A stretch of 64,000 nt of DNA from Lama glama (lineage: Eukaryota): the NCBI GenBank assembly GCA_028534125.1, contig CM052824.1:60450001-60514000 (forward strand). The letters are read 5' to 3'. The notes below the pieces were generated by a model. That model searched no databases and was not told the DNA's origin. It saw only the letters and a program-made list of their open reading frames with translations. Below are positions 27,945-54,180 of this stretch, piece by piece (within the stretch, counting starts at the first letter, position 1; the number at the start of each line of letters is the position of its first letter). The translations under genes and the position numbers were made by a program.

Positions 27945-29218
27945 TCAGAGTCTGAGCAGGAGGCTGGGGACGGCAGCACCTGATGGCCGGTCAGCGGCAC
28001 CCTTGGTGGGGGCCAGCACATCCCCGCAGCCCTCTTGGCCCACGGAGCAGGCACCCTCAGGGGTGCCCCGCTCCTCCTCCGGGGGTCCCCTCGGGCCCTG
28101 CAGCCGCTGCTGCCGCTCCTGGGCCTGGCGGGCCCGGCTGGCAATGGCACGGACGCGGCTCTGGCTGCGGGAAGAGGAGCGTCGCAGGAAGCCTTGGCCT
28201 CCTGCCACCCCCTCCCCAGCTGGGCCCAGGCTGGTGGGCGACGTGATGTCACCGGCCTGCTGGAACCCTGTGAGCCAGCGTAGCTGCTCCGTCAGGGTGT
28301 CCGGCCGTGCACTCGGCCCTGCTGGCCTCTCCCTGGCCAGGCCCAGGCTGCAGCCCAGGCTCTCCACACGGGGGACAAAGTCATCGGCGGTCAGGTCCCC
28401 GAGGCTCTTGGACTTGGCAGCCACAGTGCAGTCCCAGAGGCCCACCAAGGGGAGGCGGCCCCAGGGCAGCCTAGGAGCTAGGGGGCGGGACTGTAGCTCT
28501 CCAGGCGCCACAGGCAGCTGGCCCGCAGCCCGCAGGTTGGGGTTGGATTTGCTTTTGGTCACAGTGGGCAGGTCCAAGTGGGCGGCTGAGGCTGAGCAGG
28601 TCCGCAGGGGGAGACGTCCTGCTGGGGCCCCTGTGAGGCTTTCACGGCCTGGGCCCAGGCCCGGCAGGGAGAGATCAATGACCGTGTCACTGGATGACAC
28701 GCTAGAGGATGAAGACACGCTGCCACGGTGGCTGCCTGGCTCCAGCCGCTGCCACAGCCGGTCATTGCCTGTGGCATCTGAGTACACGGTGGGACAGGGC
28801 CCAGCCAGGGGCCACCGCCCACCCGGGGACTCTGAGGGCACCTGCGCCTCACTCTTGGCCCTTCTGGGCAGATGGGTCCGGGGGTGGCCCCTGCTGTCTG
28901 TCTGGCTGCTGGGGGCCCCCTGGCCTGCCCTACCAGCGCCCCCGCCGCTGCATGCCCACTGCCTGCTTTCAGGGGCTGGCTCGGGGTTCCTGTGGCCCCA
29001 GGTCCTGAGCTGGAGGGGCCCAGAAGTTTCCAGAGCCAGCCCTGGAGGGCTCGCCGAGTTGGTGCTGGGACCTGTGGAGCACTGAGGCCCTCCAGGGGAG
29101 TGGCTAGGGGCGGCAGCCACCAGCGGTGGTGGGCCAGGACTCAGGGCTGGCTCCTCGGCAATGGTTTCCAGGCTGCACAGGGAGGAGACCGACCTCTGCA
29201 CAGAGAAGGGGCAGGTGT
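27945..29218 (-). CDS. PLCH2: PLCH2 last coding exon
   Basis: ctacag|ACACC...; [35 protein letters not shown]. Confidence 0.9.
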
Positions 29219-32200: not shown

Positions 32201-35200
32201 AAGACCAAGGGGCCGGAGGAGACGGGCCAGACCTTGGGCAGGACATGCAGGAGGCCTGGCTGAAGTCCTGGACCTGCCTCATAAATGCTGCTCTGTGCCT
32301 GAGGATGGCCCAGGGGACCCAGAATCACGTTCCAACCCATGTCACATGAGCTGACAGTCTCCAAGGTGCTACCAGGAGTCACAGATGCTAAGGGGGCGGC
32401 CTGAGCATGCAGTGGGGACGGCAGGCCGCGCACCCCGGTGCTGGGGTACCTTCAAGCTCCTAACAGGGCTGTGCTTCTAAAAGTAGACTTTGGACATAGA
32501 GAAGCCCACTGCAAGACCAAAGAGACAGAGTGAGGCCGTGAGACACCGACAGCGGGCACGGAGCCGCAGAGACGGAGACAGGACAGACAGGACGGACGAC
32601 AGATGCACGGCAGAGTTGGGAGGCCTGGGGGCCCACGTCCAGCCAGCCTCGGGGCCAAGGAGCAAGGCAGGAGAGAGACGGTTAGTGCTAGGCCTGCGAG
32701 GACCCCAACGTGTGCCTGACAGACCACCATGTATTATGGCCCTGCTGGGCCCTGAGCACAGAACCCAGGACCCATGGGCTCTGCAGACTGGGGAAGCTGG
32801 AGCGAGACCCCCATCCTGGGTAAACTGCTGGGGACCGGTGGGGATCTGGGGCAAAGCCAGATGCCTTCGAGGAGGGATGGAGAACCTGGGGACCCTGAGA
32901 AGTAGAAGGGAAGGCCCAGGAGAGATGGAAGGCGGGCAGGGGGTGCCCAGGAAGGGCTGTGGTGTCCATCTCCCGATGGCCACAGTGGCCCCAGGACGTG
33001 GTCAGGGCTGGCAGAGGTGTGCCAGGGGCCCAGCCACTCATTTCGCAGGTGGAGACACAGTCCCAGCGAGGGGACCGCTAGACCTCATGGCCCTGGGGGC
33101 GTGGATCGGGTGGGGCTGGGGCTGGCGCTGGTGCGCCCCTTCTGGGCAGCAAGTGGCCCTGCAGGTGGCACTCACCTTACCACTGATGTCACTGACGGCC
33201 ACGTGAACAAAGATGGAGGCCTCTTCCATCCCCTCCAGGTACACATGCCGATAGCCTGAAACAGTCTGGGTCACAGCTCACCCCAGCTCCTACCTGCCCA
33301 TGTCCCCCACACTCTACTTAAAGTTCCTAAGGCCCTGAATACAACCTGTGAGTCCAGTCCTGGGGCCTCTGCCTCCTCCAGGAAGCCTGCTGGTACTGCT
33401 GTGGCCTGCAGGGATCTCTTCCTCTTCCTGGAGACCGGGGGACTCCGCAGCTGGGTCTCCCCTCCCCCACCCTGTCTATGGAGTGCTGTGGTCTTGCACC
33501 CTCCTCCTCTGCTCCCTCCGTGTCCCCATGTCCACCCGTGGTAGGAGTCAACTCGCTGGAGGAGGCTAAGCCCTGCCCTGTGCTGGAGCCTTCTGCTGGC
33601 CTGCAGGGGATGCTGACCCAGGGCTCTGCCCTCCCCAACCGCTCCCACGGTGGCCCCCTGCCCACCTGGCATCATGCTGCTGAAGGCCAGCGTCCTTTGG
33701 CCGATGAAGTCACGCCCAATGGGGTCATGGTCCCAGACGAGGAAGCGCACCAGCGCTATCTCGGGCATGTGCACCGTGAACACCAGGGTCTCTTCCCACA
33801 TGGGGTTGAATCCTGGAGATCACCAGGAGGAAGTGTCACCTCTTGCCCCAGTGCCACCTCACAGATGGGCCTGTCCCCACCACAGCTCCAGCCGGGAGGC
33901 CAGCTGGGCCCATGCCCTCTCCCAGAGCCTCCTCCTGGGCTGGCCACCCGGCAGAGAGAAGCAAGCAACACCTAAAGGCCGGGCGGCCATCACTGGGCTT
34001 CCAGTCGGGGCGAGGGGCAGGCTGGCCGGTTACCTGGGTCACAGGAGGGGGCCCTCACCCTTCCCTTCCCAGCTGACTAGCAGCACCAGCACAGGAGCTG
34101 TGATGGCGCTGGGGGCACAGGCTGGCACCTGGGTGCCCATAGCCCCCTGCAGCCTGCCTGGGCCAGGACCCTCACCATTGTCGTCCACCACGCGGGTCTG
34201 CTCCTTGCTGCAGTCCACGGGGAGCCCAATGACCTCCACCTCCACGAAGGGGTCGATGATCTGCCACAGAGAGCGAGGGTGGCACCAGGGCCCGGCAGTT
34301 TCCCCAGCCCCCTCCCTGTGTGTGCCCAGGCCCCGCTACCTCCCCTCGGTCCCCCAGCATGGAGTCCCGTGGCTTGGGGAGCTGCTGCCCACTGATGATG
34401 CGAAGCACCAGCTGCTTTTTGAGCTGCCCCGGCAGGGGGTCCTCAGAGTTGGGGTTGAAGACACCTAGAGGGCCAGGGTGTGAGGCTGAGTGGGGAGGGG
34501 TGAGCCCCCCACTGACTCTCCAGGGTGGAGATCCCTCCCCTGCCTCTACCCCATCCACTGGACGGGGGCCCGGGCCCAGGAGGAGGAGGGAGGCAGCGTT
34601 GCAGTGCGGCGGGTGCCAGGTGGCTGTGCACCGGTCACCTCTGCAACCACCCTATGACGTGGGCCCAGGTCGTCCCCTCCCACCAGTGAGGCATGGGTCT
34701 CAGCACGTGTGTGAGGCCACGCTGCCTGTGGGCGGGGAGCCAAGTACTCTGGAGCCCGGTGGGTGGGAAGCTGGTGCCCAAGGGCAGGGCGGGGGGTGGG
34801 GGTGGGGGGCAGGGGCTGTTCACGTTCACAGCTGGAAGAGGTGAGTGCAGACAGAAGAGGGGTGTGGGCGGGCCAGGGGTAGAATGGGAAGAAATCCACA
34901 AGTGGTCTTCAGCACGTCAGAGGGAACGCTGAAGCGGGCAGGGCAGGGGTGGCCGGGGACTCCAGAGTCCCAGCAGGGTGGGGGGCCCGCCCTGTGCCCC
35001 CTGCGGTCTTCATGCGGCCGCCCCGCATCCCGGCCTGTGTCCTCACCCTGGCACATGCACTGGGGCTTGAGCACGTAGCCACAGCTGCCGTTGGCACTGA
35101 ACTTGGCCCGGTTCAGCTGCAGCATCCGCCCCTCCGACTGGTAGTTCAGGGCGACTGTGGGGAGGGCGGTGGGGCGGCCAGGTCAGCCTGCACGCTGCCC

Positions 35201-38200
35201 ACGAGCCCTCATCCGCCTACGTGCGCCGGGGCATCCCGGCAGGACCCTGCCCCCAGGTCCGGCGTCACCGCTCCCTCGCCCTGGGGTCCTAAGGGCTGGG
35301 TGCCCAGGCGGGGCAACCACGCCCAGCAGCCTTGGCTCCGCGCCGGCACGCACCCATCTGGCAGCCGGCGTTCCAGAAGGGCTGGGGGTTGTAGTTGCTG
35401 GAGTCCACGCGGTAGGAGGAGGGGTAGATGCGGGACAGCTGGTGCTGGTTGAAGCGCAGGTACTGCGCCGGTTTCTGCTGCAGGATCTGCTGGGCCCTGG
35501 TCTCGCTGAAGGACGACACCTGCCAGCTGGACGCCACTGCGGGCGCCGACGGGCGGCGTCAGGGGCAGCGCGTCGGGCCCCGCCCCCCACCCCGCCGGCC
35601 CCGTGCCCTGCTGGCCCCTCACCCTCCGTCTCCACGTCATGGGTGCCCACGGACTTGGTGTACTTCACCAGGTCCGAGAGGGCCCGGGACAGCTTCATGG
35701 TCTTCTTCTGCCGGGCAGCCCTGCGGGGAGGGCGGGCACGGGGTCAGGCAGGCCGGGCTCTGATTCATGCTGAATGTCCATCAGGCGTCCACTACGCCCC
35801 TGTGTTCCAGGTGTCGGGACACGCAGTGGTCACGCTGAGAGCTGACACGGTGGGGAGGGGCAGGTGCTGAGCCCACCAAAGGGCACTGACCGTGACGGGC
35901 TACGAAACGAGCACAGGACCCACCGGCCAGTCCAGCCCCTGCGCTCCGGGGTCCATGCCCCGGGCCCCCACGCCCCCTCCCCACTGTGCAGTCCCCGAGC
36001 CTGCGCGGCTGACTCCTGCTGTTGCCAGGACAGCACCTCCCCCACTGCTGTTTCTTCCAGGGGCCGGGGTTGGGGCAGGGCACTGACCCTCGGCTCTGGC
36101 TGCCTTGGGGGTCCAAGTCCTCGTCCCCCTCCTCCACGCTGGCTGCCTTCTTTAGCTTGCTGCTCTTTTTCTGTGCAGAACGAGGGCAGAGTCAGGATTT
36201 GCGGAGCTCCAGGCTTGGCCGGGCCATCAGCAGAGCCCGGGAGGGTGCTGGAGGTGGGCCTGCCGTCCGTGGGTCCGGGCGCCCACCTTGCAGGCCTGCC
36301 TGCCCCGTCCTCTGCCATGCCCTGCGCAGCCTGGGCACTGGGTGACCTGAGCTCTGGGCACTGGCCAGTGTGAGGCCACTTACTCCATCCAGCCCTGACC
36401 AGCACTCCAAACCTAGCACCTGCAGTCAGGAGATGCAGCCAGGAATCCCAGGGGCCCTCGAGGCTGGAGGAGACCCCCCCACCTCTGGCTGGTACAGGGG
36501 CAGCTGGTGCACTCGGGGGCAAGATGCATGCTGCGCTCTGGCAGGGCCCCGCCCAGGAGCCCCCAGACCTTGCGCTTGGAGAAGCTGCCCATAAGAAGCC
36601 GACTGTTCCGCCTGCTGGTTCCAGCATCGTCCCCGGACTCCACGTCCTCCTCGGCCTGGGAGGAGAGGAGACAGAGGGACGGGGTGAGCCCAGCCTCAGA
36701 CCAGGCAGCTCCTCCCTGCAGCCCCAGGCAGCCTTCCTGGAGGAGGGAGAACCAAGAGCGGGAGGAAGGGGGAGCCGGGCCCTGGGCTGGCTGCTGCCCC
36801 AGGCCCTGGTGGCACCGTCTCCAGCCCACCCTGGGTGCGCACAGGCAGCTGCCGGGAGCAGGGGCCTGAGAGCCAAGGCGAGGACCAGTGGAAACGCTCG
36901 CTCACGCGCCCGCATCAGCTCCCCGCGATGTGTTGTTTTAAACTCATTAAGTTCCCAGTTCTGACTATTTTTCCCGTGCATGGTGACTGCATAATGAATG
37001 TTGTCTGTGCATCTGGAACATTCCTCAGCTTGCCTGCTTATATAACCCTCACACAAGGGCCCTGCAGCCCCGGAGTCCTGGCCTGCTTCTTTACCTAATT
37101 AGACAAATAACTTGGGTCTGCTCCCCACAGAGTGGTGGCCGTTTACTGTTCACACTCAGGGCTGCGGCAGATCTCCTGAAGTCTCAGGGCTGAGCCTTCC
37201 TCTCTGCCGTTTAGAGAACTCGCGCATCAGGGGCTCCCCTCCTGGCACCCCTGCCCCTGCCCGAGGGGCCCCCGGGCCTGGCAACACCGCAGCCTGTCCC
37301 CCTCTGGGGCCAAGGCACAAACCCCTCGTCCATCCTGAAGCTCGTCACACCCCTGGAGCAGCTGGGAGCCTGTGCCAGGGTCCCCGAGGCCACTGCCACT
37401 GCCACTAGCCACCCCCCCACCTTCGCCAGATGCCCCCCAAACTCTCCCAACTTTGCTCACGATGTGCCCACCAGGGCGGGAGCTGGCTTCCCTCAGGCTC
37501 CCGGGAGCCGGGCACCTGTGGCCAAAGTTCTCCATTAGCCAGGGGCACACACATCTGCATACACGCTCCACCTGCACCTCTGCGAGCTTCTGCACTCGCC
37601 CCCATGGACGCCCCTGCACACCCCTGACCACAGCCCCGCCCGGCCGGCCTCCCACCCAGCAGAGGAGCAGAGCCCCTCAGGTTTGGGTTCAAGTCGCCTG
37701 GCAGAAGAGCCTGGAGCTTGGGCTGGGGATGCCAGCCCCGCCTCCCCCCAGCCCTGTGCCCAGCAGAGGCGTCAGCATCTGTCCCGACGGCAGAGGGCGG
37801 GGCAGCCACAGGGCCCATTACCTGGACATCTCCTCAGCTCACAAGCTGGGAAAGGGAGGACCTGGCTCGAGACAATGCCTGGCAGCGTCTGCCAACCCTG
37901 AGCTCCCACCACTCCACGGACCCCTGTCCACTCCCGCTCTGAGGAGCAGCTCAGCCCACGCTGCTCACTCCCATCCTTTGCCCTCTGCGGGGTCAGGACG
38001 GGCGCCTCTCTGGCTCCTACCTCGGACCCGGGCTGCCCCGCCGTGCCCCTCGGGCTTGGTGCTGCACGAACAGGCGCTGGTCCGGAGCCCGAGGCACAGG
38101 TGCCATAACCGACGTGCTCAGGACTGTCCGGTCCCACCTGCTTCTTTTTCTCTCCTTTTATTTTTCTCCTCCTATGATTATTCTTTCTTAATGGAAGCAC

Positions 38201-41200
38201 TGGGTATTGAACCCAGGACCACATGCGTGTGTTTCCACCTGCTTTTAGGGCTGTCTCTCTCCCGGGGCCCCCGGCTTCCCTCCTCATGCCTAGAGGGGAA
38301 CGCCGCTGCTGGCAGGTGCTGGAGGCCCTGTTCACGGTGAGTTTGGCACCGGAAGAGGTGGACATGCTTCTCAGCCCTTTAACCATCGCCTGAAGCATCG
38401 CTGTCACAATGCACACGAGCACCCATCAGTCTGGGCACCACCACCATCCTGAGGAAGTGTTGGGCCCATGGCTGGAATCCGCTGTCAGCCCCACACATAG
38501 CGAGCCGGCAGGGGAGGCGGGCCCCACCTCGCCCCCCTCAGGGGGTGAGGCAGCAGGGCCCTCCCACCCAGGACACAGCGCCCAGGGCACCTCTGCTCAC
38601 CGAGAAGTGTCTGCGCCTCAGACAGAGGGCAGCTTGCGGGGCCAGGCCCGGCAGGCGCGTTCTGACTGAGACGGTCTAGTCCTGACCTCACCTGGGGGCT
38701 GGGTCCCCCAAAGAGGAGCGGGCTTTTCCTAGGACAGCACCAAAGTCCCCTGGAGTTGTGCCCGGCACTGCAGACGGGCGTCCATCCCTTGCCCGTCCAT
38801 TGCTTCTTTGCCTCCAGATAGCCACTCCAGCTGCACCCCGGGCCTCCTGCCCCCTCCCACAGGGACCCTCACTAGGGCCCAGGGACAGGGGGGCCATGGC
38901 CTCGGGTCGTGTCCACAAACCTGCTGCCCAGATGCTCCCCTCAGAGAACCCCGTGGCTCCAGCCCCCTTGCCCCTCTGCCCCTGTCCGAGCAGGGTGGAG
39001 GGGTGGCTGGTGATGCTGTGGGGGCAGGGATGGGGTGGGGTTCCCTGCTGCCCAGTCAGCTCCCACACCTGGTAGCTTCCCTGAGCGCCCGTTGTCCCGC
39101 ACACAGGAGGCCACACAGACATGAGGTCCTGGGTCCAGACTGCCCTCCTGGGTGCCCACGCCCCGAGCCGGGTGTAAGCAGAGACCTCACGTCGTCCCCA
39201 CGGCCGGCCGCGCCATGCCGCACATGCTGCCCGCCTGCCCGCCAGGGCCACAGGCGCCCTGCGTTCACCTGCCTAGCCAGCGCGGGACTGAAAATAACCA
39301 ACCGCCCGTCGGCACGGGGCCAGCGGGACCCACCACACAGCCACCCTCACATTTCCGGGGGTGCCAGCTACCCCTTGTGCCCCCATGGGTGGGACACAAA
39401 CACCCACATCCAAAAATACTGTCCTGGAGGCACCCAGCACCCTACTCACCCAGCCCGGGAGAAGCCACCTTCCCAGGCCCCCCAGAACCTGGACAATGGG
39501 GGGTCGCACTAGAGGTACCACCGGGCCCCCCAAGAACAGGGCAACACTCCCCAGCCCTGCTCACCTGCAAAATGGGGTCTGCAGGGCCAACCAGCACCCA
39601 CCACCACCCCTGAGGCCACTCAGCTAACCTGACCGCCCTTCGGTGTTTGCTGGGCCCCCTCCAGCTGCACCCCAACTGCTCAGTGTCACTGACCCAGCCC
39701 GAGGCGCCCCACACTTCACACCTGCCATGACAGCCCCACAGCACTCTCTCCATGGGGGTCCTTCCCAGAGCTTCCCTGGGGGCCTCCGTGCAGGAGCATC
39801 AGGACAGCGGCCCAGGACTGACCCGGCTCCCGGGTGGGTGGGGCCTGGCCTCTGGCCCCAGGCTGTGCTCTAGGCTCTTCTGCAAGGAGGGGCAGGACCC
39901 TGTGGCCGCCTCTCCTGCCCACGGCTAGGGGAGGGTGCAGGCCTCCAGAGGTCAGATCATCAGCCACACAGACGGCCAGCCCCTGCCTGGCCACCTGCCT
40001 TGTGACACGGTGACGGCTGTGGGTCCCTCATGATGAGAGTCGGAACAGCCAGGTGTTCAGGGGGTCCTTGGGCAGAAAGAGCAGCAGTGGGCAGGTGTGT
40101 GTGTGCGGGTTCCATACAGGTTCCAGTATGCGTGTGGGCGTAGCTGTGCACAGGCCGTGTGCCCCAGGGCCCGGCCCAGCCACGGGCTGACCCCGCTGGC
40201 CTCAGAGGTCTCACCTTTTTGGCTTCTGCCCTGTGCCCGAGTTTCCCAGGCTGGGGCAGTGTGGACACGGTGAAGTCGCTCGGGTCCTCACAGTCCCGAA
40301 TCTTCGACTCCTTCAGTAGGGAATCCAGTTTCCTCTTGGCAATGTTTTCGACGCGCTTCCGATTGGTGGAGCCCTGCAGAAGCCAGCCAGCCAGGGCTCA
40401 GCCTCGGTGCTCAGCCATGCGGGCAGCAGTGGCGACAGACCCTGGGGTCTCGGGCAGGGCCGCAGGGGCCTGCTGGGAGCGGGGCCAGCGCCATCCCACC
40501 TGGACTGACACCCGCGCTGGCCACCGACTCCTACCTGCGTCCCGCTGCTGGTCCTCACGCCATCTGCCTCTCGGGATGTGGTTTGCCCCCAGGACCACAG
40601 ATGGTGCTGAGCAGGCCCTGGGCCCAGGCCTGTCCACCCTGACACCTGCCTCCCCGGGCTGCACAGTGCTGCCCATAGGGCCCAGCAGACCGCTCATCGG
40701 CGCCCGGCGGCCACTCTGGGCTCTGAGAGCTGCTTAGGAGCTCAGGATCTGGGAACCCCCCCACCAGCCACTATGTGCCTCGAGGAGATGGATGGGGGTG
40801 GGTGCAGCCCGCCTGGTGGGCCGGTGCCAGGGGCTGGCCTGGGGAGCCTCCAGGCACCCTCACTGTCTGAGACAGCCCCCAGTGTGGCCTTGACAAACCT
40901 GGACTCCTCCAGGCAGGGCCCAGGGTACGCCCAGGCTGGAGTGGGTGCGAGGTGCACATCACAGAGAGGGGTTTACCTCGCCTCCGGCCCGGCAGAGACC
41001 GAGCAGGCACGCCCAGAGCAGGACGGGTCTGCTGCCTCAGTTTCTAAAACAATCAGCCCGTCTGGCCGGGAACGCTCCTGCACGGCGATTTTCCCACCCG
41101 ATGGCCCCTCAGGGAGAAATAATGCCTTTACAGCGCCCAGAGGAGGGAAGATGCTAACTAGAGGGCCCCTCCAGCTCTTTGCTGCTGACTCCACAGCCCG

Positions 41201-44200
41201 GAGCGCAGTTCCCAGCCCCGGCCCAGCAGCTCGGAGCTCCTGACAGAGTGGGGGACGCAGGCAGGGGCGCCAGGCCCAGGCCCAGTGCACGCCCAGCAGT
41301 CTGGCAGCTTGCAAATCACCCTCAGAATCTGCCCAGTGGCCCTCGCCCAGCCTTGCCACAGCTCCCCTGCCCTCAAGGAGGCCCCGCCCCCACTCACATC
41401 CCCATCGAGGAGCTTGCAGTCATCGTCGATCTCATCTGCGCTGTCCTCGTCAGACACCTCGCCCTCCTCAGCATCCTCGCTGATGTTGGCGGGCAGCTTC
41501 TTGCCCTGGGGGAGGAGGTGGGCCATGGGAGGGGCCCTACAGGAAGTGCGGGAGCAGCGGCAAAGGGTAGGAGCCTTTGCCAAGCTTCCTTGTGGATCTC
41601 AGGCCGGGGCAGGGCCAGCCCACACCTCCCTATGGCAGGAAGGGAAACGCCAGGAGTCCGGAGGAGGGCCCCAGACTGAGTGGTCACCGTGGGAGACTGA
41701 AGACAGGCCAGGGGCAGGGATTGCCCTGATCCCTCAAATCTACCACAGGTCGTGTGGAACCCTAGCCTGGCTGGAGCAAGGTCCTACACCTGACCTGACC
41801 CCAGGTCCCCAGTCAGAGGTCAGAGGCTCAGCCCCGGGAGGGGCAGGCAGGGGCTCACCTTCACCAGGATCTTGCCCTTGAGCATCTGTGGAGACGGTAG
41901 CATGGTGGCATCCTCACTGGTCACTGATGACAAGTCCAGCTTGTCCCCAAGGATGTCGGTCAGATACTGGGCCATCTTCTTCTGCTGGATGACACTGCAG
42001 TGGTTCTCAATGGACAAGATCACTGGATACCTGGCCCCAAGGTGGAAGGAGCAGGGTGAGGCCAGGGGAAGGCTAGGCCCCACCGATGTAGGACCCCAGG
42101 CCACCTGCACCACTGAATGAGGAGGGATCTTCACCAGGAGCCCAAGATAGAAGGGGCTGCCAGCCACTCTGGGAGGGGGCTGTCATGGCTTTCAAAAGCA
42201 ACTGAGTGTGTGGGAAGGAAGCTGGGAGATCTTAGGGGTGGGTGAAGAAGACGTGCACTCCTCCCAATGAGAAAAACAAAGGCAATAGAAACTCCGTGAA
42301 AAACTAAAGGAAGCATTCAAGCAAGTCAGGGTTTAAAAATGATGTGAACTAAAATGAGGCGCAACGTGGAACAATGGATCAACTGTGAGAAAGATAATCC
42401 CATTCACCTAGTTACTGGAGACACTGTCCTGTGCATGGCCCTGGGGTCCCAACATTGGCCCCCCATAGCCTGGCACACACAATCTGGGGGGAACACCACT
42501 ACTGCCTGCATGGTACAGGATGAGGAGTGCAGCGCAGCATGGGGATTTTCATGATAACTTCTTCAATTATTTTTTCAGCCATGTGTACATTTACTTGGGG
42601 TTTTGCCAAAAAGCAATGTGATACTTTTAGAAAAGGTAAGTGACTCCAACCTACAAGTCATAAACTAGAGCAAGAGATGGGCGAGCCCCGTGATACAGAG
42701 AGGCAGGGCGTGGGGCAAAGGTGCTCATCTCCCCATTTCTCAGGCAAGGGACTGAGGTCCGGGGGAACCCCGTGCCTGAGAAGATTGTGCTGGCAGGTAA
42801 GGCACAAGCCCCACCCTGAGACCCCAGCAGGCCCCTGGCTCCTCGGCAGCTACAGGAGACCTGTGGGTCCCAGCCCCCTGCCCTGAGATGCCCCCCTCAC
42901 CAGCAATTCCAGAGGCCAGGCTCTCTCCCACTCCCAGAGCCTGGGCCGGATCCTCCTAGAGGGGCCTCTCTGTTTCTGTTTCTTAATTCAGCCTTGCTTC
43001 TCCTCCCTCCTTCATTCTTGGCCTCGCTGAGCAGACTTGGAGGCAACTAACAGTGAGGGAAGCCCATCTTCTATTTCCAGAAATGAAACTGGGTTCTGTC
43101 CCACGGGGCCTATAGCCACAGCAAACTGAGTCTGGATGTAGCTTCTTAAGGGCAGCTCATGCCAGAGCCACCATGTTGCAGGCATCAGACCCCAGGGGTT
43201 GCCCCGACGTGGGTGTGGATGGGGGCTGCTGACACACACTCTGTATGGCCCCAGCTTGTCATGCTGTTACTCCAGCACCCATCGCCTACCTTTCCCTGCC
43301 CTTCATCCTCAACAAGAAACCCAGTAACCAGCCCCTCGGCCACTACAGCCACTGCTTGCCCCAAAGGACGTGGGGGAGGGGTGGGAAGAGCCCCTGGCGC
43401 CCCTCCCCCCACCCCCCTGGGCCCGCCCCCTAGGCCCACCACTCACTCGTTCTTGACGAAGGCATATTTGTTGATGGTTTCAATGACGTCTTTGAATAGG
43501 ATCTTGGAGGTCAGGGTGTAGCCGTGGTGCACAATGGGCTCCCCATCAGGCCCATCCCAGCAGTCCACTGTCGGCAGGCAGACCTCGGTCAGCTCCAGGG
43601 GCCTGACCGCCAACCCCCAGAGACTCCCAGCCTGTGGACTCTAGTGGGAGGCAGCCCCTTGTTTCGGCAGGAGAAGCCTATCCCAGCCCCTGCCCAGAGA
43701 CTCCAGAGGGCTCTTCAGGGCCGCCCCACCTCCCACAGGAGATGTCGGCCCAGGGCCCAGGCCCAGCCCCCTGGGCTGACAGGGGGCGCGGGATCCCAGA
43801 GCCCGCAGCACTCACCCTCCACGCAGCGGCAGCCGGCCTGCAGGACCCAGGCATACATGTCTACCCTCGACTGGGACATGAGCTGGTCGCCCACGAGGTA
43901 GGTGTTGTGAGACGAGGTGATGAAGTAGTGGCTCAGTGGCCGCGTCATGTCCTGGTGCACGTGGTGATGCTCTGGGTTGAAGATGTCGCCGGCGGGGCTC
44001 CGTGTGTAGTTGGTGAAGCCTGCCGAGGGAACACAGCAGGACGCGAAGGGGCTCAGCCCCTGCATGTCGGTCCCACCGCCGGGCTCATCCCAGGACCCCC
44101 ACCCCCACGCCACGTGGATTTGCACACAGGCCGCCCATCAGCACCCAGCGGGCCCGGCAGGAAGGCTGGCCCAGCGCGCACCCACTCACCATCAATGCCC

Positions 44201-47200
44201 ATTGTCCCCTTCCTCTTGTTCTCTGGGCAGGGCTCAAACTGCTCAATGATGTCGCGGCAGCTCTCAAGAGTCACACCCGTCATCTAGGCCAGAGAAGGGG
44301 CTTGAGCCCAGGCTGGCCCATCTCTGGCCCTGGCCAGCCCCAGGTAGCCCCTCACCCCGCTCCAGAACAGCCACTGCCTTCCGCCTGCTCTCTGACCACC
44401 GTATCGCATGGGGCTGACCACAGGAGGCTGAGGCTCTGGTCGCTGCAGCGTGCTACCCGCTCTGGGGGCTCACTGGCCACCCTCATCGTCACCAGAGACT
44501 CAGGAGCCAGCAGACTACCAGTGGGTCACATGGCTTTGGAAGAGCTGGCGCCACTGCGGTCCTCGGCAGGGGAGGGGTCTGTGGCCTCCTCAGCTGGGCC
44601 ACCCCCCACCCCGCTGTGTGAGGGGTCCTGAGAACCGTGGACCAGGGTGGGCCAGCAGGGAGCAGGCCTGGTGGGAGAAGGCGCAGGAGAGCCCGGCCCC
44701 ACAGCCCACCTTGGAAGAACCCGGGCGGCTCTCCTGGCCCCCTGCTGCCTGCCCAAGTCCCCGGCGAGAAGGCTGCACGTGGCAGCCAAGCCCACAGCGG
44801 CTGTGCCCATCTGCACATCAGAGGCTGAGCGACCTCCCAGTGCCCCGCAGTGCAGCCCAGGCCGGGAGCCCCCAGCTCCCGGAGGCAGGCCCACCAACAG
44901 GGCCTCCTGGCCATCAGGAATGAGGGGGTGGGTATGGGCAGTGGAGGCGAAAGGGCAAATGAGGCCAGAGCTCGGAGCAGCTGTGGCCCCCAGAGGTCCA
45001 GAGTCCAGGGGTCAGAGCTCCAGCCACCCAGCTGGTGGACAGCTTTGGCCGCAGACTGGGGGGGTAGTTCTGCAAAGCTTAGGGCGAAGGTCGGGGAGCA
45101 ACGGGTGGGTCAGTTCTGCCCGTCCCAAACCAAGCCGCTTTCCTTCTCCCCACCCTAAGTGCACCAGCTGTTGGGACAGAGGCCCCCAGCCGCACTCCAG
45201 TGGCCAGGCTGGGAGCGAGTTGCCCTGAGCATCTCCCACCTGGGCAAGCACGACTGGGGGGAGGCAGGTGGGCTGCCACAGGAACAGAGCCCCAGAAGAC
45301 TGAGGGACCTTGAAAGCACATTCTGGGGAGACAGCCCCTGAGTCAGGCCCTGGGTTTGGTGCGGCCTCGTGGGGCCCTGGTGAGGGCAGGTCCCGGACAG
45401 ACAGCACCCAGACCAGCCTGGGTCCCGCAGCGTCCAGCCGCTGCTCCCAGTGCCCAGCCCCCAGCCCTGCCCAGGGGCCCAGTGGCAGCCGTGGAGGCGA
45501 AGGGAGCGGTGGAGGGCCCTGAGCAGTCCCCCGAGGCTGTCTGCTCCCAGAGACAGCGGGGGGCCTGAAGGTTGCCCCTAAATTCCACTCTCACCCAAAA
45601 GTGGGTCGGTGAGGGTCCCAGGAGTTACTCCCTCTCAGCCTGGGGGTAGGGCCGCATGCTGTCTGAGGTCTGAGCATGCCTCCCCTCCCCCACCACAGAC
45701 TGCCAGCCTCCGTCCACCGGAATGGGCAGGACCTGGTCACTGCCCAGGCCCAGGACAAGAGAGGCAGAGCCCAGGAAGCAGCTCAGAGTCAAGGGAAATA
45801 GACAGGACACCCTGCCAGCCCCAGAGCCCTCTGTGTGTCTGCTGGACAAGCGTTTGAGGGGAGTGGGCCCAGGGCTCTGGGCGTGACCTGGGCCCCCATG
45901 GCAGGACTTGGTGGGAAGGCTGGGCCATGGAACCCTGGTCCCAGGAGATGCTCAACACTAAAACAGGACCGCGGGCTCCCCTCTGGGAGCTCCAGGGGGC
46001 CACGGTCAGGCTGGGCCGCCCACCTTCCCCACCTGCTCGTGGCTCCTGTGGGACACACCCTGGAACAGGCTGGCGGGGCCACAACGGGAAGCAAGGCAGG
46101 TCCAGTAAGGGGACCTCGAGTGCCAGGCTGGTGCCCACCCTTCCCCCAGCCCTCAGCCACACCACGGACGGACGCAAATGCCCAAATGAGGTGAGGCCAC
46201 GTCCCCCAGGACCACCGCTCCTGCTGGGGAGCCCGCACCTTCTGCTCCACTTCCAGGAAGCGCTGCAGGTCGGCAGCATCCAGGTGGTCCTTGTGGCCAC
46301 TGTGGGCCAGCATGAGCAGGTAGAGGTCCCGGCGGGTGGACATCGCCTTGTAGAAGGCGCAGAACTCCTCGAAGCCCAGCGCCCCCTGCTGGTCGTCCGT
46401 GTCTGCTTCCTGTAAGGGGAGGCCTCTGGGTCCCCAAGTGTCCCACCTTGGGCCCCGACCACGAGGGGGCCTCCGGTCCACCCTGAGTCACGTTGCCCCC
46501 GCCCCCTTCCAATGTCACTACCCACGTCGTGGGCTCATGGGTGCTCGCCAAGCCCCGCAGTGCCGTCTGCACTGGGCTCCCCTCTGACTCTCCCACCAAG
46601 GAGCCACTGAGTGACCTGTTAACACAGACCCCACCTGCCTGCCTCCAAGCCTCCCGAGGGCAGCCTGCGTCGAAGCCGGAAGGCCACAGCCAGCCCCATG
46701 TCCCCGACCCCAGAGAGGCTCCCTGGAAGGCCAGCCCTGGAAGGCGCTCCTGGCTGCCATCTTTGCCCCGCACTGTGGCCTGGCACTGAGGTGGGCACCC
46801 AGCAGGACCCCAGCGTCTCACTCCAGGGCCGGAGTGCCCTCTCCAGGTGCCCGTGCTGAGGCTGGGACAGGGCCAGGTGGTAGGAGGGGCTGGCCCACAG
46901 CCACCTGCTCCAGGGCCCAGCAGAGGCCAGACAAGGACCCCAGTATCCATTCCAGGTTTGAGGGCAGCCCTGTGTCCAAGAGCTGGCAGGATGGACAGGG
47001 AAGGGCCCTCACTGAGGGTCAAGGGCTCTTTGGGACAGAACCGGGCTGGTAGCCCTCCCCGGGGGCCGTGGCTGGAGCTGGGCAGAGATGCCCGCAGGCC
47101 GCCCCGGCCTCCCACTGGGCTCTGCAAGCGGCACGTCCGAGGCGGCGACTCAAAATGCTCTGTGATGAGAGGCCCCCAGGAGCCCGAGAGGACGGACCTG

Positions 47201-50200
47201 GCCCCTCAGCCCCAGAAACACCCTCCACAGGCTCTGCGCTCTTCTCCCCACAAAGGAGACCGCCACGGCTGAAAGCACCCACCGGCCGGAGCCGCTCTGC
47301 TGAGCTGGGCTCAGAGCCGGCCCAGGGCACCCACTAGGGTGAGGGCCAGGGCCAGGGCCAGGCTAGGCCACGCCTCCCCCGCACTGGGGTTTTAGACTTA
47401 ACGAAATTACGCCCTTTTGCCCACCACAGTGACCTCTCCTTTGATTAGGCAGCTCAAGGCAGGGGGAACGATACTGAGATTTCTCGACAATAAAATTGAT
47501 GCTAATTATCAGAGCCACTTGGCCGGCTGGAGGTCTCCCCTGCGTCCCTGGGCTCCAGAGTGTCTGCAGGGGCAGCCATGCCCACGGGCAGGGAGGCCTA
47601 GGCACCTGGGGCCACCGGGGACAACGCCTGCCTAGGGTCTGGGGTCAGGAGCTCCTGGCCAACAGGCCCTTGCTCGCGCCTCTCGGGGGCCGGCTCTGAG
47701 CTGGCCCGCCTGCAGGTCCCAGAGGCCTCCTCCAGGTGGCCTGCATGCAGCCCAGACACAGCCAGGCCTGGAGCTGGTCAGAGGGCTTTGAGGGAGCCCC
47801 CCGTGCCTAGACAGCGCACGAGAAGGAAGTCCAGCCTCCTCACAGGAGGGGCAGGGGCTTCCCAGGGCTCCCGGCCGGGGGCATTTTCTTTCTTTCTTTT
47901 TTCCCACGCTATTTATTTTCTAATACCTTTACTGTGGCATGAGTCCTGCAGAGTAAGCTGCACATAATTCAGAGGTACAACTTGATGCGTTTCGATAGAC
48001 GTCTGCACCGGTGAAACCATCAGCACAGTCGAGACTCCGTCACTAACACCTCCACCACTTTTGGGGAGGGGGCAGGAGGGAGGTAACTAGGTTTATTTGC
48101 TTCCCCCTCTTTTCTAGATGGCGGTGCTGGGGATTAAGCCCAGGACCTTGTGTGTGCTAAGTACGCACTCTACCGCTGAGCTACACCCACCCCAAGGGGG
48201 CATGTTCAAGCCAGGACTTCACAGTGGACCTTCAGGCCCCAGGAGGCAGCAAGGGCTCACACCCTCTCTGTGAGGGGCCCTCATCTCTCATCCTGCCTCC
48301 GAGGCTCATCTGAGCCCCGGGTCCTAAGACAGCCTATTGCCCAGCACAGCTTCACAGGCCTGGAAGGGGCTGCTGACCCCACAGCTGCCCTTGGAGGCAG
48401 GGGAGGCAGGGAACTGGTGGGCTGCTCTGTGGGCCTGAGCCGTCTGCCTGCTCCTCACTGCCCAGACAGGCTCTGCTCCCTGGGGCCTCCAGGAGGGGCC
48501 CTGCGAGCCCCCAGCCCAGTCCTGCTGCAGCAGTCTGAGAGCATCCTGCTCCTCCGCACAGTCCACCGTGTGCACACAGACCCGAGGCTCAGAGCAGCTG
48601 AGCATGACCTTCTGCCCATCATGAGAGCACAGGAGGGAGCCTCCAGGGGCCACGCCCGGTGGAGCAGTTGGCTGTGTGTGCAAGCGAGCGTGCGTGTGTG
48701 TGTGTCGGGGTGTGGGGCCTGGGTCATGCTCACGGAACACTCTTTCCAGGCAGCAGCAAGACAAGTGAGGACGGAGAGCAGGGTCTGCTGGCCGAGTCCC
48801 ATGAACGGGGATCCGCTGACACAGCATCGCGCATCCCCCACCCCCGTTCCAGCAAGGGTTCCAGAACGAGACAAGCTGATCACAGACAGTAAGGGCTGCT
48901 GCTCAGCTAACGGATGTGTCTTCCTAGGTGCTCACACCAGGGTAGCTGGGGGCCAGAGGCTCCGGGGATGGGAAACTGGAGCTGCGGCCCACAGGGCAGG
49001 GCCGGTGCAGCCCACGACGGCCGGGCAGCTGTAGGAGGGGCGGGAAAGGGGTGCAGCCTCCTGTGGGTGGCTTCCCTCACTGACCCCGTGCCTGCCCAGA
49101 TGGCCACTGGCCTGGGGAGGCCCTGGGAGCCGCTACAGTGGTGCCTGCACAGCTGCAAGAGGTGGCAGCCTGGGGCATCCGACCGCCCGCCCCCCGAGGC
49201 CCAGGATGGTTGGCCGAGCTGCCTCCCCCGCCCCTTGCTGCAGCTGGGACCGGGCCAGCTGCTCCTGGACACACACAGCTGCGCCCCAGGTGCCCTCGCT
49301 TGCGCAGTATCCCTGGGCCTCGGCCCCGGGCAGCCCCACCAGCCTCACCTTGAACATCTGCTTCACCCTCTGCCGGGGCAGGTTCACATTCAGCTTGTGC
49401 AGCAGCTGTAGGACCTCGCCGATGCTCAGACTGCCGTCCCCGTTCTTGTCGGCCTCGTCAAACGTCTGCTTCAGCCACTTTGGGGCCAAGTTAGGGGCCA
49501 ACGTGGGTCCAGCAGGGCCGCCACCCCCCTCTCCCCGGGCAGGAAAGAGCCCCGCCCCCAGATCCGTGGGCCAGCCAGGGCCGGGAGCCCCACCCGCGCT
49601 GGACAGGGGTGCCCGTCCTGGGGCCTGCCCTGCGCCCAAGGATATTGGTCCCTGGTGCGCTGGCGGCGCGCTAGGCTGTCCTCGTCCCGGATGCCGGCCA
49701 TGAGGTAGCGTAGGCCGGTGACCCAGGTGCGCGCCTCGTCCCTGCTGGGCGAGACCAGGTCCAGCGACTCCCGGTGGCTGCCATGGTAGATGCTGAAGCA
49801 GCAGTTGGGGTCGAAGCTGCCGTCGGGGTGGCGCTGGAAGATCTCTGACTGCCGCCCCTCGCTCACCTCCTGGATGGAGTCGATGGAGACTGCGGGCGGG
49901 GCAGGGCACAGTCACAGCCTCCCCGGGGCCAGGTGTCCCCCAGCCGCAGCCCCGCGCTGTCACAGCAGCAGCTCGGCACAAACGCCCTCTGCCCCATGGG
50001 CAGCAAGGCTGGTGCCCCCGGGGTCTCCCTTCCTGTGGGAGGCTGGGGTGCTGGGGAGGGGCGGTTCAAGGGGTCCACCAGGCAGGAGGAGGAAGAAATG
50101 CAAACCTGCTGGTGAGCCGCCTCTCCCCGCTCCACCCTGACCATCAGGTCTGCTTTCCCGCCCTTTGGGAATGTAAGACGGAGAGGAGCTGCCTCCCCCC

Positions 50201-53200
50201 GATAGCCCCCTGGGTCCCGCTTCTGCATCCAGCCAGGCCTGCGGAGTGAGGCAGCCCAGACAAGCTAATTCCATCCGTCAAGCTCGGCCAGCGTGTCTAT
50301 CCATTCCGAGCAGACAATCGCGGGCCGGTGCAGCCGAGATCCAGTGGCCACCTCAGTAATGAACTCTGGCACCAGTGGGTGGGGGGCCAGGGTGCAGCGG
50401 AGTCCAGCTTTGTGTGCACCAGCTCAGGCTCCATCAAGATTTTCATTAGCGGCCAAAGCGCCTGGGGCACGCAGAGCCTCCGTTCAGAAGCTGAATTTCC
50501 ACGAGTAGATGAGCTCAAAAGGGTGCTTCTAGGGTCTGTGCTCGTGCGCGTGGCAGGGCCCCTCGCAGATGTGTGGGCACGCGTGGCCAGCATCCTCCCT
50601 GGGAGCAGGCAGCCCGGGCTCAGCACAGCCCGGACACCCACCACACCCACCCACACCCTGCCCGTCTCCCACGCCTCACCGGGGCAAGCGTGGTACCATT
50701 CTGGGCATTACCGTGTCCAGTGCAACGACAGTGGGGCTTCCCTACTCCTGCAGTGAGGGGTGGCCTCCCCATCTGTCCTCTGCCCTCAATGCCCCCTCTC
50801 CGGGAGCTCCCGGCTCCCCTGCTCCCCCAGCCATGCAAAGCCCCCGTCCTGGAGCTGCCTTCTCCAGCTCCCTAGGTGCACCGTGTGTTCATGGCAGGGA
50901 GGCAGGGGTTCTGGGCTCCAGATTAGGGGGAGCTGACAATCAGGAAACAGCTGCCCCTACACCGTGTTCCGCCCTCTCAGGGACCCCTGGGCCAATCAGC
51001 TCTAAATTCCCAGCTCTGTTTCCCCTAGTCCCTCCTGCTGGTTTCTGCCCTATCACCCCCACCCCCAGAGAAGCCTCCATGACCTCCACCCACCAGTCCC
51101 CTCTATGCGCCATCCTGTTTTCCTCATCACTCAACACGATGTGAAGTTATCCCACGTTAGGTGGTGTCGCCCACCTCACACTCAGAGACCAGCTTCACGT
51201 CGGCCAAGTTCCCTCAGGATGTCCAAGCCAGGAGCAGTGCCCGGCACAGAGCAGGGGCACTGGCCGGGGCACAGGGGCTCCTCCTTCCTGCCTGCACAGC
51301 ACACGGCAGCTCCACCTCCCTGGGGCCCCAGGGCAGCCCCAGGCCCCTCCTCCAAGACGCCCTCCCAGGGTGCTCCAGGGTGTGGCTCTCTCCTGGGCCT
51401 GTGGCGGCGGTACCCCTAGCAACCACTGGGCTGAGGCCCTGCCCGGGCACGCCTGGGTCTCTTCAGTCGCCAAAGCCAGAGGAAGGGAGGTAGGGTCCCT
51501 TCTCCCACCTATTAGGACTGTTCTGTGTCTCCTCTTGACCCGCAGGCCCCACCGCCTGGTCCTTGCACAAATCCTCACAGCTCAGGACACCCCTGCCATG
51601 CCCCTCTAGGCAGCCCTGCAGCCTCCACAGCCCTGCCAGCTGCTCGCACCCCAGGCGGCCTGGGCCAGCACTGGGCCCCGAGGTCCCCCCCGCAGTGTGC
51701 CCAGCGGGGACCCTCTCTCTGTTCAAGAGTGGTCTCACCTCCCCAGCATGATGAAGGTCCTTCGGCCTCTCGGCCCATCACAGGGCGCGGGAGCTGCTCA
51801 GTCTCCACCAAGCACCAGAGGGCCCTGCTAGGTGGGCAGCAGGGCCGGGGCCCTCCCCCTCCCCCACCCCTTTGTCCAGGGTCACCCTGGAGCTCCGAAG
51901 CCAGCTGAGCCCAAGTGCCAGGCCCGGAGCCAGCTGGAGACTCCCCTTCAGCTGCCCAGTGGCTGCTCTGGGAGCGACCCCTGCCCCCTGGTGCTGGCCT
52001 GGCCCCCCCCGCCTCACCCCACCCCCTGAGCTCCCCACTCACTCTTGGCCTTCTCGTTCTTGCGGGAGGGCCGCCAGCGGATGCAGGAGCGATGCTCGTC
52101 CAGGAAATAGAAGCGGACCAGGCCCTTGGAGCCGCCCCGGAGCTTCACCATCTGCGTCCCCGCCTGCATGGCACTCATGCACCGCTCCACTGCGGGCCCG
52201 AGGACCCCAGCACAGGGACAGACCGGCACAGGGACAGACAGACGGGGCACCCGTGAGCACTGCAGCCGCTCCCCTGACTCACCGCAGCCTCATGCCCACA
52301 CCCTGCATGCTCAGGGGGGTGCAGAGACCACCCATCCACCCACCCCCTACCAGGGAACCAAACTCGGACCCCCAGGTGCCGGCTCAGGTCACACGTCAAT
52401 CTGGGACCCTGCTCGAGGACGAGTCCACACAGAGGGTCAGGCTGATTCTGCCCAGTTGGGCTCCAGCCGCCCTCCCGACAGTCTGGGGCCTGAGGGCCAG
52501 GAGAGGTGCCAGCCGGGCCCCTGCTCCTCCCTGGCTCTGCCTGCTTTCAGAGGCCGTCCCACCCGCCCTCCACCAGCATGACCTGCCCAAAGGCTATGAC
52601 ACACGGGAGGACACATGGACGGGGTGCAGAGCCGGCTCTCAGAGCCACTGCCTAACGAGGCCTCCGTGCCAGGTACAGCGTGGGCTCCAGGGGGGCAGCA
52701 GGCGGGCGGCAGCCATAGGCTGCTCCTGGGAGCCCGCACCCGCTTCCTGTGGCGTCCTCAGGATGGCCGCCCTCCTCCCATGTGCCACAGGGGGACCCCA
52801 CACACATCCACCCCGGAGGCCATGGCCCCGTGCAAAGGCGTGGGTCTGGGAAGGTGCGGCACCTCAAATGAGCTCCAAGCCCAAACCCTTCCCCTTCACG
52901 CGCCCACCTGCCTTTCCCCCCAACCCTTCTGTGCATCCAGCCTCCCTGCAGCTTGCTCCCAGGTCCCAGTGGAGGGGGGAGCCCACCAGGACAGCAGCAC
53001 CCGGGGCTGGAGAGGCTGCGGGGTCTGGAAGTCCAGGCCAGGGTCAGCGGACTGGGCCCAGGGACATTTCCATCCTGGCCCCATCAGGCCCTTCACAACT
53101 GCTGCAGAAAGCGCAGGACCCACGTAATGAACAGAGTAATAAAACCCACGAGGTCCCCAGTGAGGGACCCTCAGGCAGCGCTTGCCGCCCATGGGCAGCG

Positions 53201-54180
53201 CCAGCCTCAGGGGATCAGTCAGTGAGGACTTCTCGGAGGAAGCCAATCCCTGACCTTGAACCGCAGACACTGCGGAGGGTGGGGGCAGAGCAGGGAGTGG
53301 CACCCAGGGAGGCTGGGCTCCACGGGAGACTTCGGGAGGTAAGGACCCAGCACCATGGGACGCAGGCAGCAGGAGGGAGGGGTGAGGCAGGAGACAGGGC
53401 AGAGCCAGGCCCCAGAGGCCTGGAACAAGGTTCCGGAAGGTGGTGCCTGGACCAGGCCCCATCTGCCAGCTGGAACAGAGGCCCAGCGGGGCAGGAGGGC
53501 AGACCCGAACGGGCCTTCTGTGGGCCGCCCCCGCCCCCCGAGACAGACATGCCACCCTCCCGTCACCTGCCGGAGTCTCACAGCAGCCAAGGGCAGTCTG
53601 CCTGCTGCGAAGGGCCATCATGTGCTGGCCTCACCCCACCTGCGCTGAAGGTGCCACTGCTCCCAAAGAACCAGAAACCCCCCCTCAGAGAAAGCTCTGG
53701 AGTTGCCTGGCGGCCCCCAGCACATCCACCGGGGCCCCACCTGCACCCCCCTTCCCCTCGACTCCTTCACCCCCTCCTTCCCCACTGCCCGCCTGGGGTT
53801 CTGCCTCCAGGCCCGAGTCAGGGTCAGAGACGCAGGCCAGGAGATGCTGCCGGGACCCCATGACCCCAGAGGGAGACCCGAGGGGTCAGGAGGTTACAGG
53901 TTTGAGTGGGGGTGGGGTGAAAGCCCCTGGGACCTGCACACCCCAGGAGCAGCCCCCACTCACCTGGTCCCGTGACCCTGGGGCTGGGTGGGGCTCTGGC
54001 CAGGGAGGATCAGGCCAGTCCCTGTCCCAGATGACCGGGCAGGCCGGCCCCCTTACCTAGTGGGCCAAGCTGCCACCGCGGGGACACAGCCACGCTCCCG
54101 CTGACCCAGAGGAAGGCCTCTGCCAGACAGGCCACTGTTCCCTTGGTCCGGCTAGGGATAAACGGCCAGAGGACGGACAT
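27945..54180 (-). CDS. PLCH2: Phosphoinositide phospholipase C eta-2 (PH, EF-hand, X/Y TIM barrel, C2, long C-tail); about 1413 aa using the short exon-21 donor
   Basis: 22 phase-consistent exons: VERCMSAMQ...(PH), [12 protein letters not shown] (EF), SSHNTYL and HHGYTLT (catalytic His), [13 protein letters not shown] (Y), C2, ...SLLLRL*. Confidence 0.97.
29458..29485 (-). CDS. PLCH2: PLCH2 28-nt cassette exon with in-frame stop (VRN*)
   Basis: ccctag|TTAGGAACTGAGCGCAGCCAAGTGCCAG|gtaacg. Confidence 0.7.
29527..29568. repeat. 21-bp tandem duplication (cagcgtgggggtggggctggc x2)
   Basis: Read directly from the sequence. Confidence 0.85.
30774..31071 (-). CDS. PLCH2: PLCH2 exon 21, short form (long form extends to 30306)
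   Basis: [11 protein letters not shown]...[12 protein letters not shown]; donors GTAAGG after 30774 and GTAAGC after 30306, both phase 1. Confidence 0.88.
33176..33255 (-). CDS. PLCH2: PLCH2 exon 20 (C2 end)
   Basis: [18 protein letters not shown]...SGK|gtgagt. Confidence 0.93.
33666..33812 (-). CDS. PLCH2: PLCH2 exon 19
   Basis: [23 protein letters not shown]. Confidence 0.93.
34176..34260 (-). CDS. PLCH2: PLCH2 exon 18
   Basis: [17 protein letters not shown]. Confidence 0.93.
34340..34464 (-). CDS. PLCH2: PLCH2 exon 17 (C2 start)
   Basis: [14 protein letters not shown]. Confidence 0.93.
35047..35154 (-). CDS. PLCH2: PLCH2 exon 16
   Basis: [18 protein letters not shown]...GYVLKP. Confidence 0.94.
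35354..35536 (-). CDS. PLCH2: PLCH2 exon 15 (Y domain)
   Basis: VSSFSET...[26 protein letters not shown]. Confidence 0.94.
35623..35720 (-). CDS. PLCH2: PLCH2 exon 14
   Basis: [20 protein letters not shown]. Confidence 0.92.
36088..36170 (-). CDS. PLCH2: PLCH2 exon 13
   Basis: [17 protein letters not shown]...SR|gtcagt. Confidence 0.88.
36569..36655 (-). CDS. PLCH2: PLCH2 exon 12
   Basis: [12 protein letters not shown]...SFSKRK|gtctgg. Confidence 0.88.
38143..38228 (-). mobile_element. Truncated tRNA-derived SINE fragment
   Basis: T-rich tail plus ggaagcactgggtattgaacccaggacc (B-box half, same family as 17511-17684). Confidence 0.6.
40215..40373 (-). CDS. PLCH2: PLCH2 exon 11 (X-Y linker)
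   Basis: [19 protein letters not shown]...AEAKK|gtgaga. Confidence 0.88.
41398..41505 (-). CDS. PLCH2: PLCH2 exon 10
   Basis: [25 protein letters not shown]. Confidence 0.93.
41859..42030 (-). CDS. PLCH2: PLCH2 exon 9
   Basis: [12 protein letters not shown]...[14 protein letters not shown]. Confidence 0.94.
43447..43567 (-). CDS. PLCH2: PLCH2 exon 8
   Basis: [24 protein letters not shown]. Confidence 0.94.
43816..44019 (-). CDS. PLCH2: PLCH2 exon 7 (X domain start)
   Basis: [24 protein letters not shown]...GCRCVE. Confidence 0.94.
44190..44283 (-). CDS. PLCH2: PLCH2 exon 6
   Basis: [18 protein letters not shown]...GID|gtgagt. Confidence 0.92.
46239..46409 (-). CDS. PLCH2: PLCH2 exon 5
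   Basis: [16 protein letters not shown]...EVEQK|gtgcgg. Confidence 0.93.
47885..48050 (-). mobile_element. Ancient L1 3' end fragment (L1MC-like)
   Basis: T-rich tail, then ...ctgcacataattcagaggtacaacttgatg...gtgaaaccatca, typical of L1M 3' ends. Confidence 0.55.
48058..48193 (-). mobile_element. tRNA-Ala-derived SINE (Vic-1-like)
   Basis: Shares ggaggtaactaggtttattt and ...ctaagtacgcactctaccgctgagctacaccc with the copy at 17511-17684. Confidence 0.82.
49349..49478 (-). CDS. PLCH2: PLCH2 exon 4 (EF-hand)
   Basis: [21 protein letters not shown]...QMFK|gtgagg. Confidence 0.92.
49479..49645 (-). other. PLCH2: U12-type (minor spliceosome) intron, AT-AA ends
   Basis: 5' splice site ATATCCTT; branch site CCCCTAAC about 12 nt from the 3' end; frame requires the intron to end ...CCCCAAA. 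Confidence 0.85.
49646..49889 (-). CDS. PLCH2: PLCH2 exon 3 (PH), followed by U12 donor ATATCCTT
   Basis: [11 protein letters not shown]...[11 protein letters not shown]...RTRD. Confidence 0.92.
52043..52189 (-). CDS. PLCH2: PLCH2 exon 2 (PH)
   Basis: [23 protein letters not shown]...RKNEKAK|gtgagt. Confidence 0.93.
54057..54180 (-). CDS. PLCH2: PLCH2 first coding exon
   Basis: [26 protein letters not shown]...WQLGPL|gtaagg; phase 1 joins the next exon. Confidence 0.8.

Follow-up and report, generated by a model that had tools for sequence, protein, structure and literature searches.

A conserved intron of PLCH2 (phospholipase C eta 2) with AT-AA termini lies between the PH domain and the first EF-hand in a 64,000-nt stretch of llama DNA (the window), and we consider it very probable that the minor (U12) spliceosome removes it in an ordinary and constitutive manner. 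Existing catalogues list the intron as AT-AA for human and as minor for both human and mouse. The view that it is remarkable or uncatalogued is not supported, given the AT-AA ends of the human intron in RefSeq, GENCODE and Parada 2014 and its entry as a minor intron in MIDB.

Features of the AT-AA intron and its setting in PLCH2

The coding span of PLCH2 was delineated with an alpaca protein, which was 99% identical by tblastn to the last long exon of the gene (camel proteins, 97%), and every named match among the best 120 of 1600 protein matches was eta-2, with camelids ranking first at 99-100%. A search of PDB sequences gave 23 matches, with no PLC-eta chain among them. Exon 3, which is the third coding exon in the alpaca gene model according to tblastn, ends with the residues RTRD followed by the CA of a Gln codon (phase 2). 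Among the first 18 splice junctions of PLCH2, 16 were GT-AG, one belonged to the AT-AA intron and the script could not place the remaining one; the other introns mostly begin with GTGAG or GTAAG. The junction that the script could not place is located near 43570-43815, and past residue ~860 the alignment pieces overlap (30763-33277, minus strand); alternative exons or alignment ends are the probable cause. Besides, exon 3, in its PH-coding part, contains the motif GAG/GTGAGC (49861-49869, minus strand), which looks like a strong U2 donor and, judging from its sequence, might be used cryptically when minor splicing fails.

On the minus strand, the exon/intron boundary reads ...AGGGACCA/ATATCCTTGG... 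at 49646/49645 and the intron/exon boundary reads ...TTGGCCCCTAACTTGGCCCCAAA/GTGGCTGAAG at 49479/49478, the 3' end of the intron being CCCCTAACTTGGCCCCAAA and exon 4 starting with GTGGCTGAAG at 49478. The combination of the ATATCC donor and a 167-nt intron yields the in-frame peptide D-Q-W-L-K and makes the AA end obligatory with this donor, and three other 167-nt registers (AA-AA, TA-AG and AT-GT) give the identical peptide, with the U12 donor found only in the AT-AA register. The coordinates, termini and frame of a 167-nt AT-AA intron at the PH/EF-hand boundary, as proposed in the initial annotation, were all reproduced, and its U12-type assignment agrees with the donor, the branch box and the human and mouse listing in MIDB. 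The coordinates of these features are given in Table 1.

The donor ATATCCTT agrees with the U12 consensus RTATCCTTT at eight of nine bases (PMC1635337). The motif RTATCCTT occurs once in the window, when 0.45 occurrences are expected, and at least once in 35 of 100 shuffles, so its mere presence is weak evidence. What stands above chance is that the donor sits at the exon end and that a branch box follows at a suitable distance: the chance of finding RTATCCTT within 3 nt on either side of a given boundary is roughly 2.5e-5, and a CCYTRAC box would fall within a specified range of 7 nt with a chance of roughly 2e-3. Two GTATCCT motifs were also observed on the plus strand, at 7198 and 54916, with no exon boundary established at either.

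The branch sequence GCCCCTAAC is weak, agreeing with TTCCTTRAY at six of nine positions, and the branch box differs from TCCTTAAC by two mismatches. In TAAC, the second A (49491) is the likely branch A and lies 12 nt from the AA end, compared with 13 nt for the first A. Both this distance, within the 11-13 nt characteristic of minor introns, and the AT-AN form of the termini, where AT-AA keeps the frame, correspond to an A-type minor intron. U2-type AT introns have a U1-like donor with A-A/G-A-G-T after the AT, not ATCCTT; a U2-type AT-AC/AT-AA donor was rejected as a candidate, the donor being ATATCCTT. AT-AN termini and the 11-13 nt optimum have been reported previously (PMC1635337, PMC3584512, PMC4176328), AT-AA has been documented among U12 ends (PMC1635337, PMC3584512, PMC1557818), and of the non-canonical ends of minor introns conserved in animals it is the most frequent (PMC10639083). 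The AT-AA introns of ABHD18, PIGB, MSH3 and RASGRP4 share with that of PLCH2 the ATATCCT donor, a U12 branch box and the AA end (PMC8280824, PMC1557818), whereas the branch box of PLCH2 is weaker than theirs and its acceptor lies within AAAG, with three possible registers.

Table 1. Positions of the PLCH2 features in the window and of the paralogous introns in the llama genome
Feature	Position	Strand	Basis or remark
PLCH2 coding span	27948..54180	minus	tblastn with alpaca protein P0006, 22 aligned pieces
Coding exon 3, C-terminal half of PH domain	49646..49889	minus	PH_12, E 2.6e-8
Coding exon 4, first EF-hand, opens with G of Gln codon	49349..49478	minus	EF-hand_7, E 5.5e-8
U12-type phase-2 intron, AT...AA, 167 nt	49479..49645	minus	sequence and frame
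U12-type 5' splice site ATATCCTT	49638..49645	minus	sole match in window
Branch sequence CCCCTAAC	49490..49497	minus	likely branch A at 49491
Frame-keeping acceptor AA, 12 nt from branch A	49479..49480	minus	sequence; human ATAA junction
Overlapping +1 AG, 13 nt from branch A	49478..49479	minus	sequence
Overlapping -1 AA, 11 nt from branch A	49480..49481	minus	sequence; product QVAEADV-stop
TGA stop shared by retention and +1 splicing	49471..49473	minus	translation; 122 nt before next junction
Poor GC pseudo-donor TGG/GCGCAG	49634..49635	minus	joined to +1 AG gives QYPWWLK
Poor GT pseudo-donor CGG/GTGGGG	49592..49593	minus	joined to +1 AG gives ...PAR-WLK register
PLCH1 intron ATATCCTCC...TTCTTGACTTTTCTGCAA/G, AT-AA, 7797 nt (L011)	G000:C4:27104110-27111906	minus	
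PLCD3-like intron, AT-AC, 343 nt (L013)			
PLCD1-like intron, GT-AG, 4596 nt (L009)			
PLCD4-like intron, GT-GG, 1107 nt (L010)	G000:C5:15697780-15698886	minus	

Catalogue entries, orthologues and public gene models

The human PLCH2 junction is listed as ATAA and U12_ATAC-like, with a score of 84.9 and a length of 205 nt, and its support comprises eight cDNAs, 6, 11 and 12 reads in three columns and a GENCODE v17 transcript (Parada 2014, PMC4176328); RefSeq NM_014638 and others also annotate AT_AA for this intron (PMC8280824). Moreover, PLCH2 and Plch2 are recorded as minor-intron genes in MIDB, where the 12-nt human donor CCAATATCCTTG (score 99) and the human and mouse branch sequence TGGCCCCTAACT (score 68) are identical to those of the llama (Olthof 2019, PMC6717393); the matching signals are what identifies the human and mouse introns as the one in the window. 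The human intron is located at hg38 chr1:2479978-2480182 and hg19 chr1:2411416-2411621 (PMC6717393, PMC4176328) and the mouse intron at chr4:155006732-155006917 (PMC6717393), with lengths of 205 nt in human and 186 nt in mouse, compared with 167 nt in the llama window. Our literature search found the intron in tables and no discussion of it in main texts; the main text of Moyer 2020 mentions neither PLC nor AT-AA, and the supplement of Lin 2010 contains no PLCH entry.

Translations that run from exon 3 into the intron provide further evidence of conservation, since QYP follows the exon in 129 of the 229 proteins fetched, including named birds, a turtle and teleosts; this read-through fixes CA/RTATCC and is compatible with an AT or a GT start. 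In 15 proteins that read from the intron into WLKQTF, the last two intron bases could be deduced, giving Lys (AA) in 13, Met (AT) in two and Thr (AC) in none. The Lys cases are a pig protein, three vole isoforms from a single species and nine proteins without a name, two of which share a cluster; they are mammal-like where they could be placed, while the two Met cases are fish-like. The latter (P0213 and P0215) end in ...SLT(F/Y)DIM-WLK, an ending that implies a branch box of canonical appearance and AT as the last two intron bases, with a donor that is either AT or GT. Regarding the comparison of AA and AC as ancestral ends suggested in the initial annotation, these sequences indicate that the AA end is conserved in the mammals sampled and old in placental mammals. 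The position of the intron and its U12 signals are common to orthologues and paralogues.

An error in the llama assembly, with AC as the true end, would be in line with AC being the preferred end of AT introns (PMC4176328), although we regard it as having a negligible probability given that the human intron also ends in AA (PMC8280824, PMC4176328), that the pig, vole and unnamed mammalian proteins carry Lys (AAR) and none of the 15 carries Thr (ACN) before WLK, that the final base must be A for camel gene models whose peptide requires an AG immediately ahead of TGG, and that three sequencing runs contain 0.97-0.98 of 123 sampled words. Conversion of the acceptor from AA to AG by A-to-I editing was also considered and set aside, the seven edited sites in Table 2 of Parada (PMC4176328) including none in PLCH2.

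Automated mis-annotation of this junction, anticipated in the initial annotation, is evident in public databases. Among the first 120 matches, 104 proteins were full-length (at least 500 aa; each represents a cluster and a species may contribute several isoforms, hence no species census), and 83 of these read DQWLKQT at the junction, whereas 21 were aberrant, comprising 15 with an intron-derived insert before WLK, four with retention of the whole intron and two with loss of residues. Two camel RefSeq models are included (XP_074233745.1 and XP_064350228.1), whose YPW insert corresponds to the GC pseudo-donor of the window joined to the +1 AG, and the register of the dromedary GenBank model KAB1268547.1 corresponds to the GT pseudo-donor joined to the same AG. 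The inserts vary by species (YPW, YPC, YPR, YPQ, YPWAPG, YPWAHR and longer), and this variation suggests the choice of a program rather than biology. Altogether, about one in five of the sampled full-length public PLCH2 proteins is aberrant at the PH/EF-hand boundary.

These models could alternatively be taken at face value if the major (U2) spliceosome removed the intron, either as a U2-type AT-AA intron or by joining a cryptic GC or GT donor to the +1 AG, since 15 full-length models contain intron-derived peptide directly before WLK. Besides, the pyrimidine fraction ahead of the acceptor is 0.70, resembling the 16 GT-AG introns of the same GC-rich gene (0.55-0.95), and the human intron was filed under U2 A-type, not in the U12 set (De Wolf 2021, PMC8280824). 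However, the U12 label in that study only reflects score thresholds on the donor and the branch point (PMC8280824), and the weak branch box would explain why one pipeline filed the intron as U2, while MIDB assigns the donor a score of 99-100 as U12 (PMC6717393). The inserts differ among species and depend on poor pseudo-donors, as if the program had taken the nearest GT or GC, whereas QYP follows the exon in mammals through fish and human cDNAs contain the AT-AA join (PMC4176328). Removal by the major spliceosome is, in our judgement, very improbable, and the human intron has probably been misfiled in a 'major-spliceosome' control set, given that MIDB and Parada class it as U12 and that its signals are of the U12 type.

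Dependence of the PLCH2 intron on the U12 machinery is hinted at by patient cells with mutated CENATAC, in which its retention rose from 0.068 to 0.53 with an unadjusted p of 0.011 (PMC8280824). That value is the lowest among 93 of the 97 rows of the CENATAC sheet, at a baseMean of 2.2 and with no adjusted p, and the counts behind this rise are low; in the same sheet, an SCN8A row changes from 0 to 0.5, and PLCH2 was barely expressed in the HeLa depletion experiment (PMC8280824).

Acceptor registers and the NMD question

The acceptor of the intron lies in an AAAG run with three overlapping ends (AA, AA and AG) at 11, 12 and 13 nt, of which the middle AA is the only one that keeps the frame. 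In minor introns, joint recognition of the donor and branch box by U11/U12 and a 3' end measured largely by distance from the branch A are established for the class, and the PLCH2 intron would be processed in the same way. All three ends fall within the optimum, and therefore distance alone cannot explain the choice among them. Human transcripts join at the middle AA (PMC4176328), and AT-AG appears to be disfavoured (PMC3584512), although an older survey of human U12 introns counted 11 AT-AG and three AT-AA (PMC1557818). By orthology with human, the same AA junction is presumably used in llama PLCH2.

Use of the +1 AG with the U12 donor (168 nt) gives RTRDHG-stop, an immediate stop in agreement with the frameshift predicted in the initial annotation, and the -1 AA register, which had been overlooked there, gives RTRDQVAEADV-stop with a 166-nt intron. 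Intron retention ends in ...PQSG-stop. The stops of the slipped or retained forms are located 109-122 nt upstream of the next junction. Transcripts are subject to NMD when a stop lies more than 50 nt ahead of a downstream junction, and the placement of these stops satisfies that rule, yet the same is true for most frameshifts and the property is unspecific.

In the initial annotation, the junction was considered rate-limiting or error-prone, with a +1 AG that could leak transcripts to NMD. A regulated version of this idea holds that the conserved AAAG keeps three acceptors within reach of the branch point, so that retention or one-base mis-splicing would affect a sizeable and adjustable fraction of transcripts and their destruction by NMD would limit the amount of PLC-eta2. 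Some observations are compatible with it: all registers lie at 11-13 nt and lead to stops before the next junction; AA was kept in 13 of the 15 read-through proteins, mammal-like where placed; and two rodent-like spliced contigs carry the -1 product and one carries a -4-like product. In addition, A-type minor introns show higher basal retention (PMC8280824), and the choice of U12 3' ends has been described as error-prone (PMC3584512).

The protein data, however, contain no +1 product among 229 proteins (taken from the best 120 out of 207 short matches and the best 120 out of 1600 long ones), and the -1 product, present in two of the 229 (two clusters, rodent-like), is the sole shifted adjacent register with any trace. 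Each of the -1 and -4-like contig products is possibly a sequence error. Plch2, expressed at 45 TPM in mouse cerebrum, is missing from the mouse table of 150 introns whose retention was seen in every replicate of a given tissue, and likewise from the mouse table of alternative splicing above 10% (PMC6717393). Moreover, retention in healthy human cells is 0.068 (PMC8280824), and in the supplement on RNU4ATAC disease PLCH2 was found solely in an expression table (PMC8034651). NMD and aligner bias could mask slipped forms in the protein, retention and splicing data alike.

Taken together, slippage followed by NMD is plausible though unremarkable, and the idea of a leak is unsupported. A regulated leak is accordingly unlikely, and it is equally doubtful that the placental AAAG acceptor beside a weak branch box acts as a one-nucleotide register switch in which the in-frame share sets PLC-eta2 through NMD. 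For an ordinary and constitutive minor intron, rare -1 or +1 slips or retention would generate premature stops, and NMD would clear these transcripts as noise rather than as regulation. The junction would represent new biology only if the leak were large and regulated, which current evidence does not suggest.

Paralogous introns in the llama genome

Four paralogues in the llama genome carry an intron at the same phase-2 position between the PH domain and the first EF-hand (Table 1), while two PLCL-like loci (L003 and L004) read through at this point without an intron. Names were given to the paralogues by matching sequences in human tables, as the donor and branch sequences of PLCH1, PLCD1, PLCD3 and PLCD4 in the genome resemble the human table entries. 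PLCD3 was located by protein search, the genome-wide donor pattern being uninformative with 1234 matches. The PLCD4-like intron combines the degenerate donor GTATCGAC with a strong branch box and requires its GG end for the frame, and the human and mouse PLCD4 donors also score low in MIDB, with values of 61-63 (PMC6717393). In PLCH1, the human intron is AT-AC/A (PMC8280824) while the llama intron is AT-AA/G according to the assembly, a two-base difference in the acceptor, and switches of intron ends between species have been described previously (PMC1557818, Table 3).

An intron whose first base is A would tolerate any last base, and the last base would thus be free to drift. Such drift fits the ends AA, AC, AG, GG and AT of the homologous introns in paralogues and other vertebrates. 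If the improbable register switch were to operate in PLCH2, the AA/G acceptor of PLCH1 (AC/A in human) would be a parallel case, and the introns of the five PLC paralogues would amount to an allelic series, provided by nature, for the selection of U12 3' ends. Overall, the five paralogues of a single genome, whose shared ancestral intron now has AT-AA, AT-AC, GT-AG or GT-GG termini, offer a natural series for the choice of U12 intron ends and for subtype switching.
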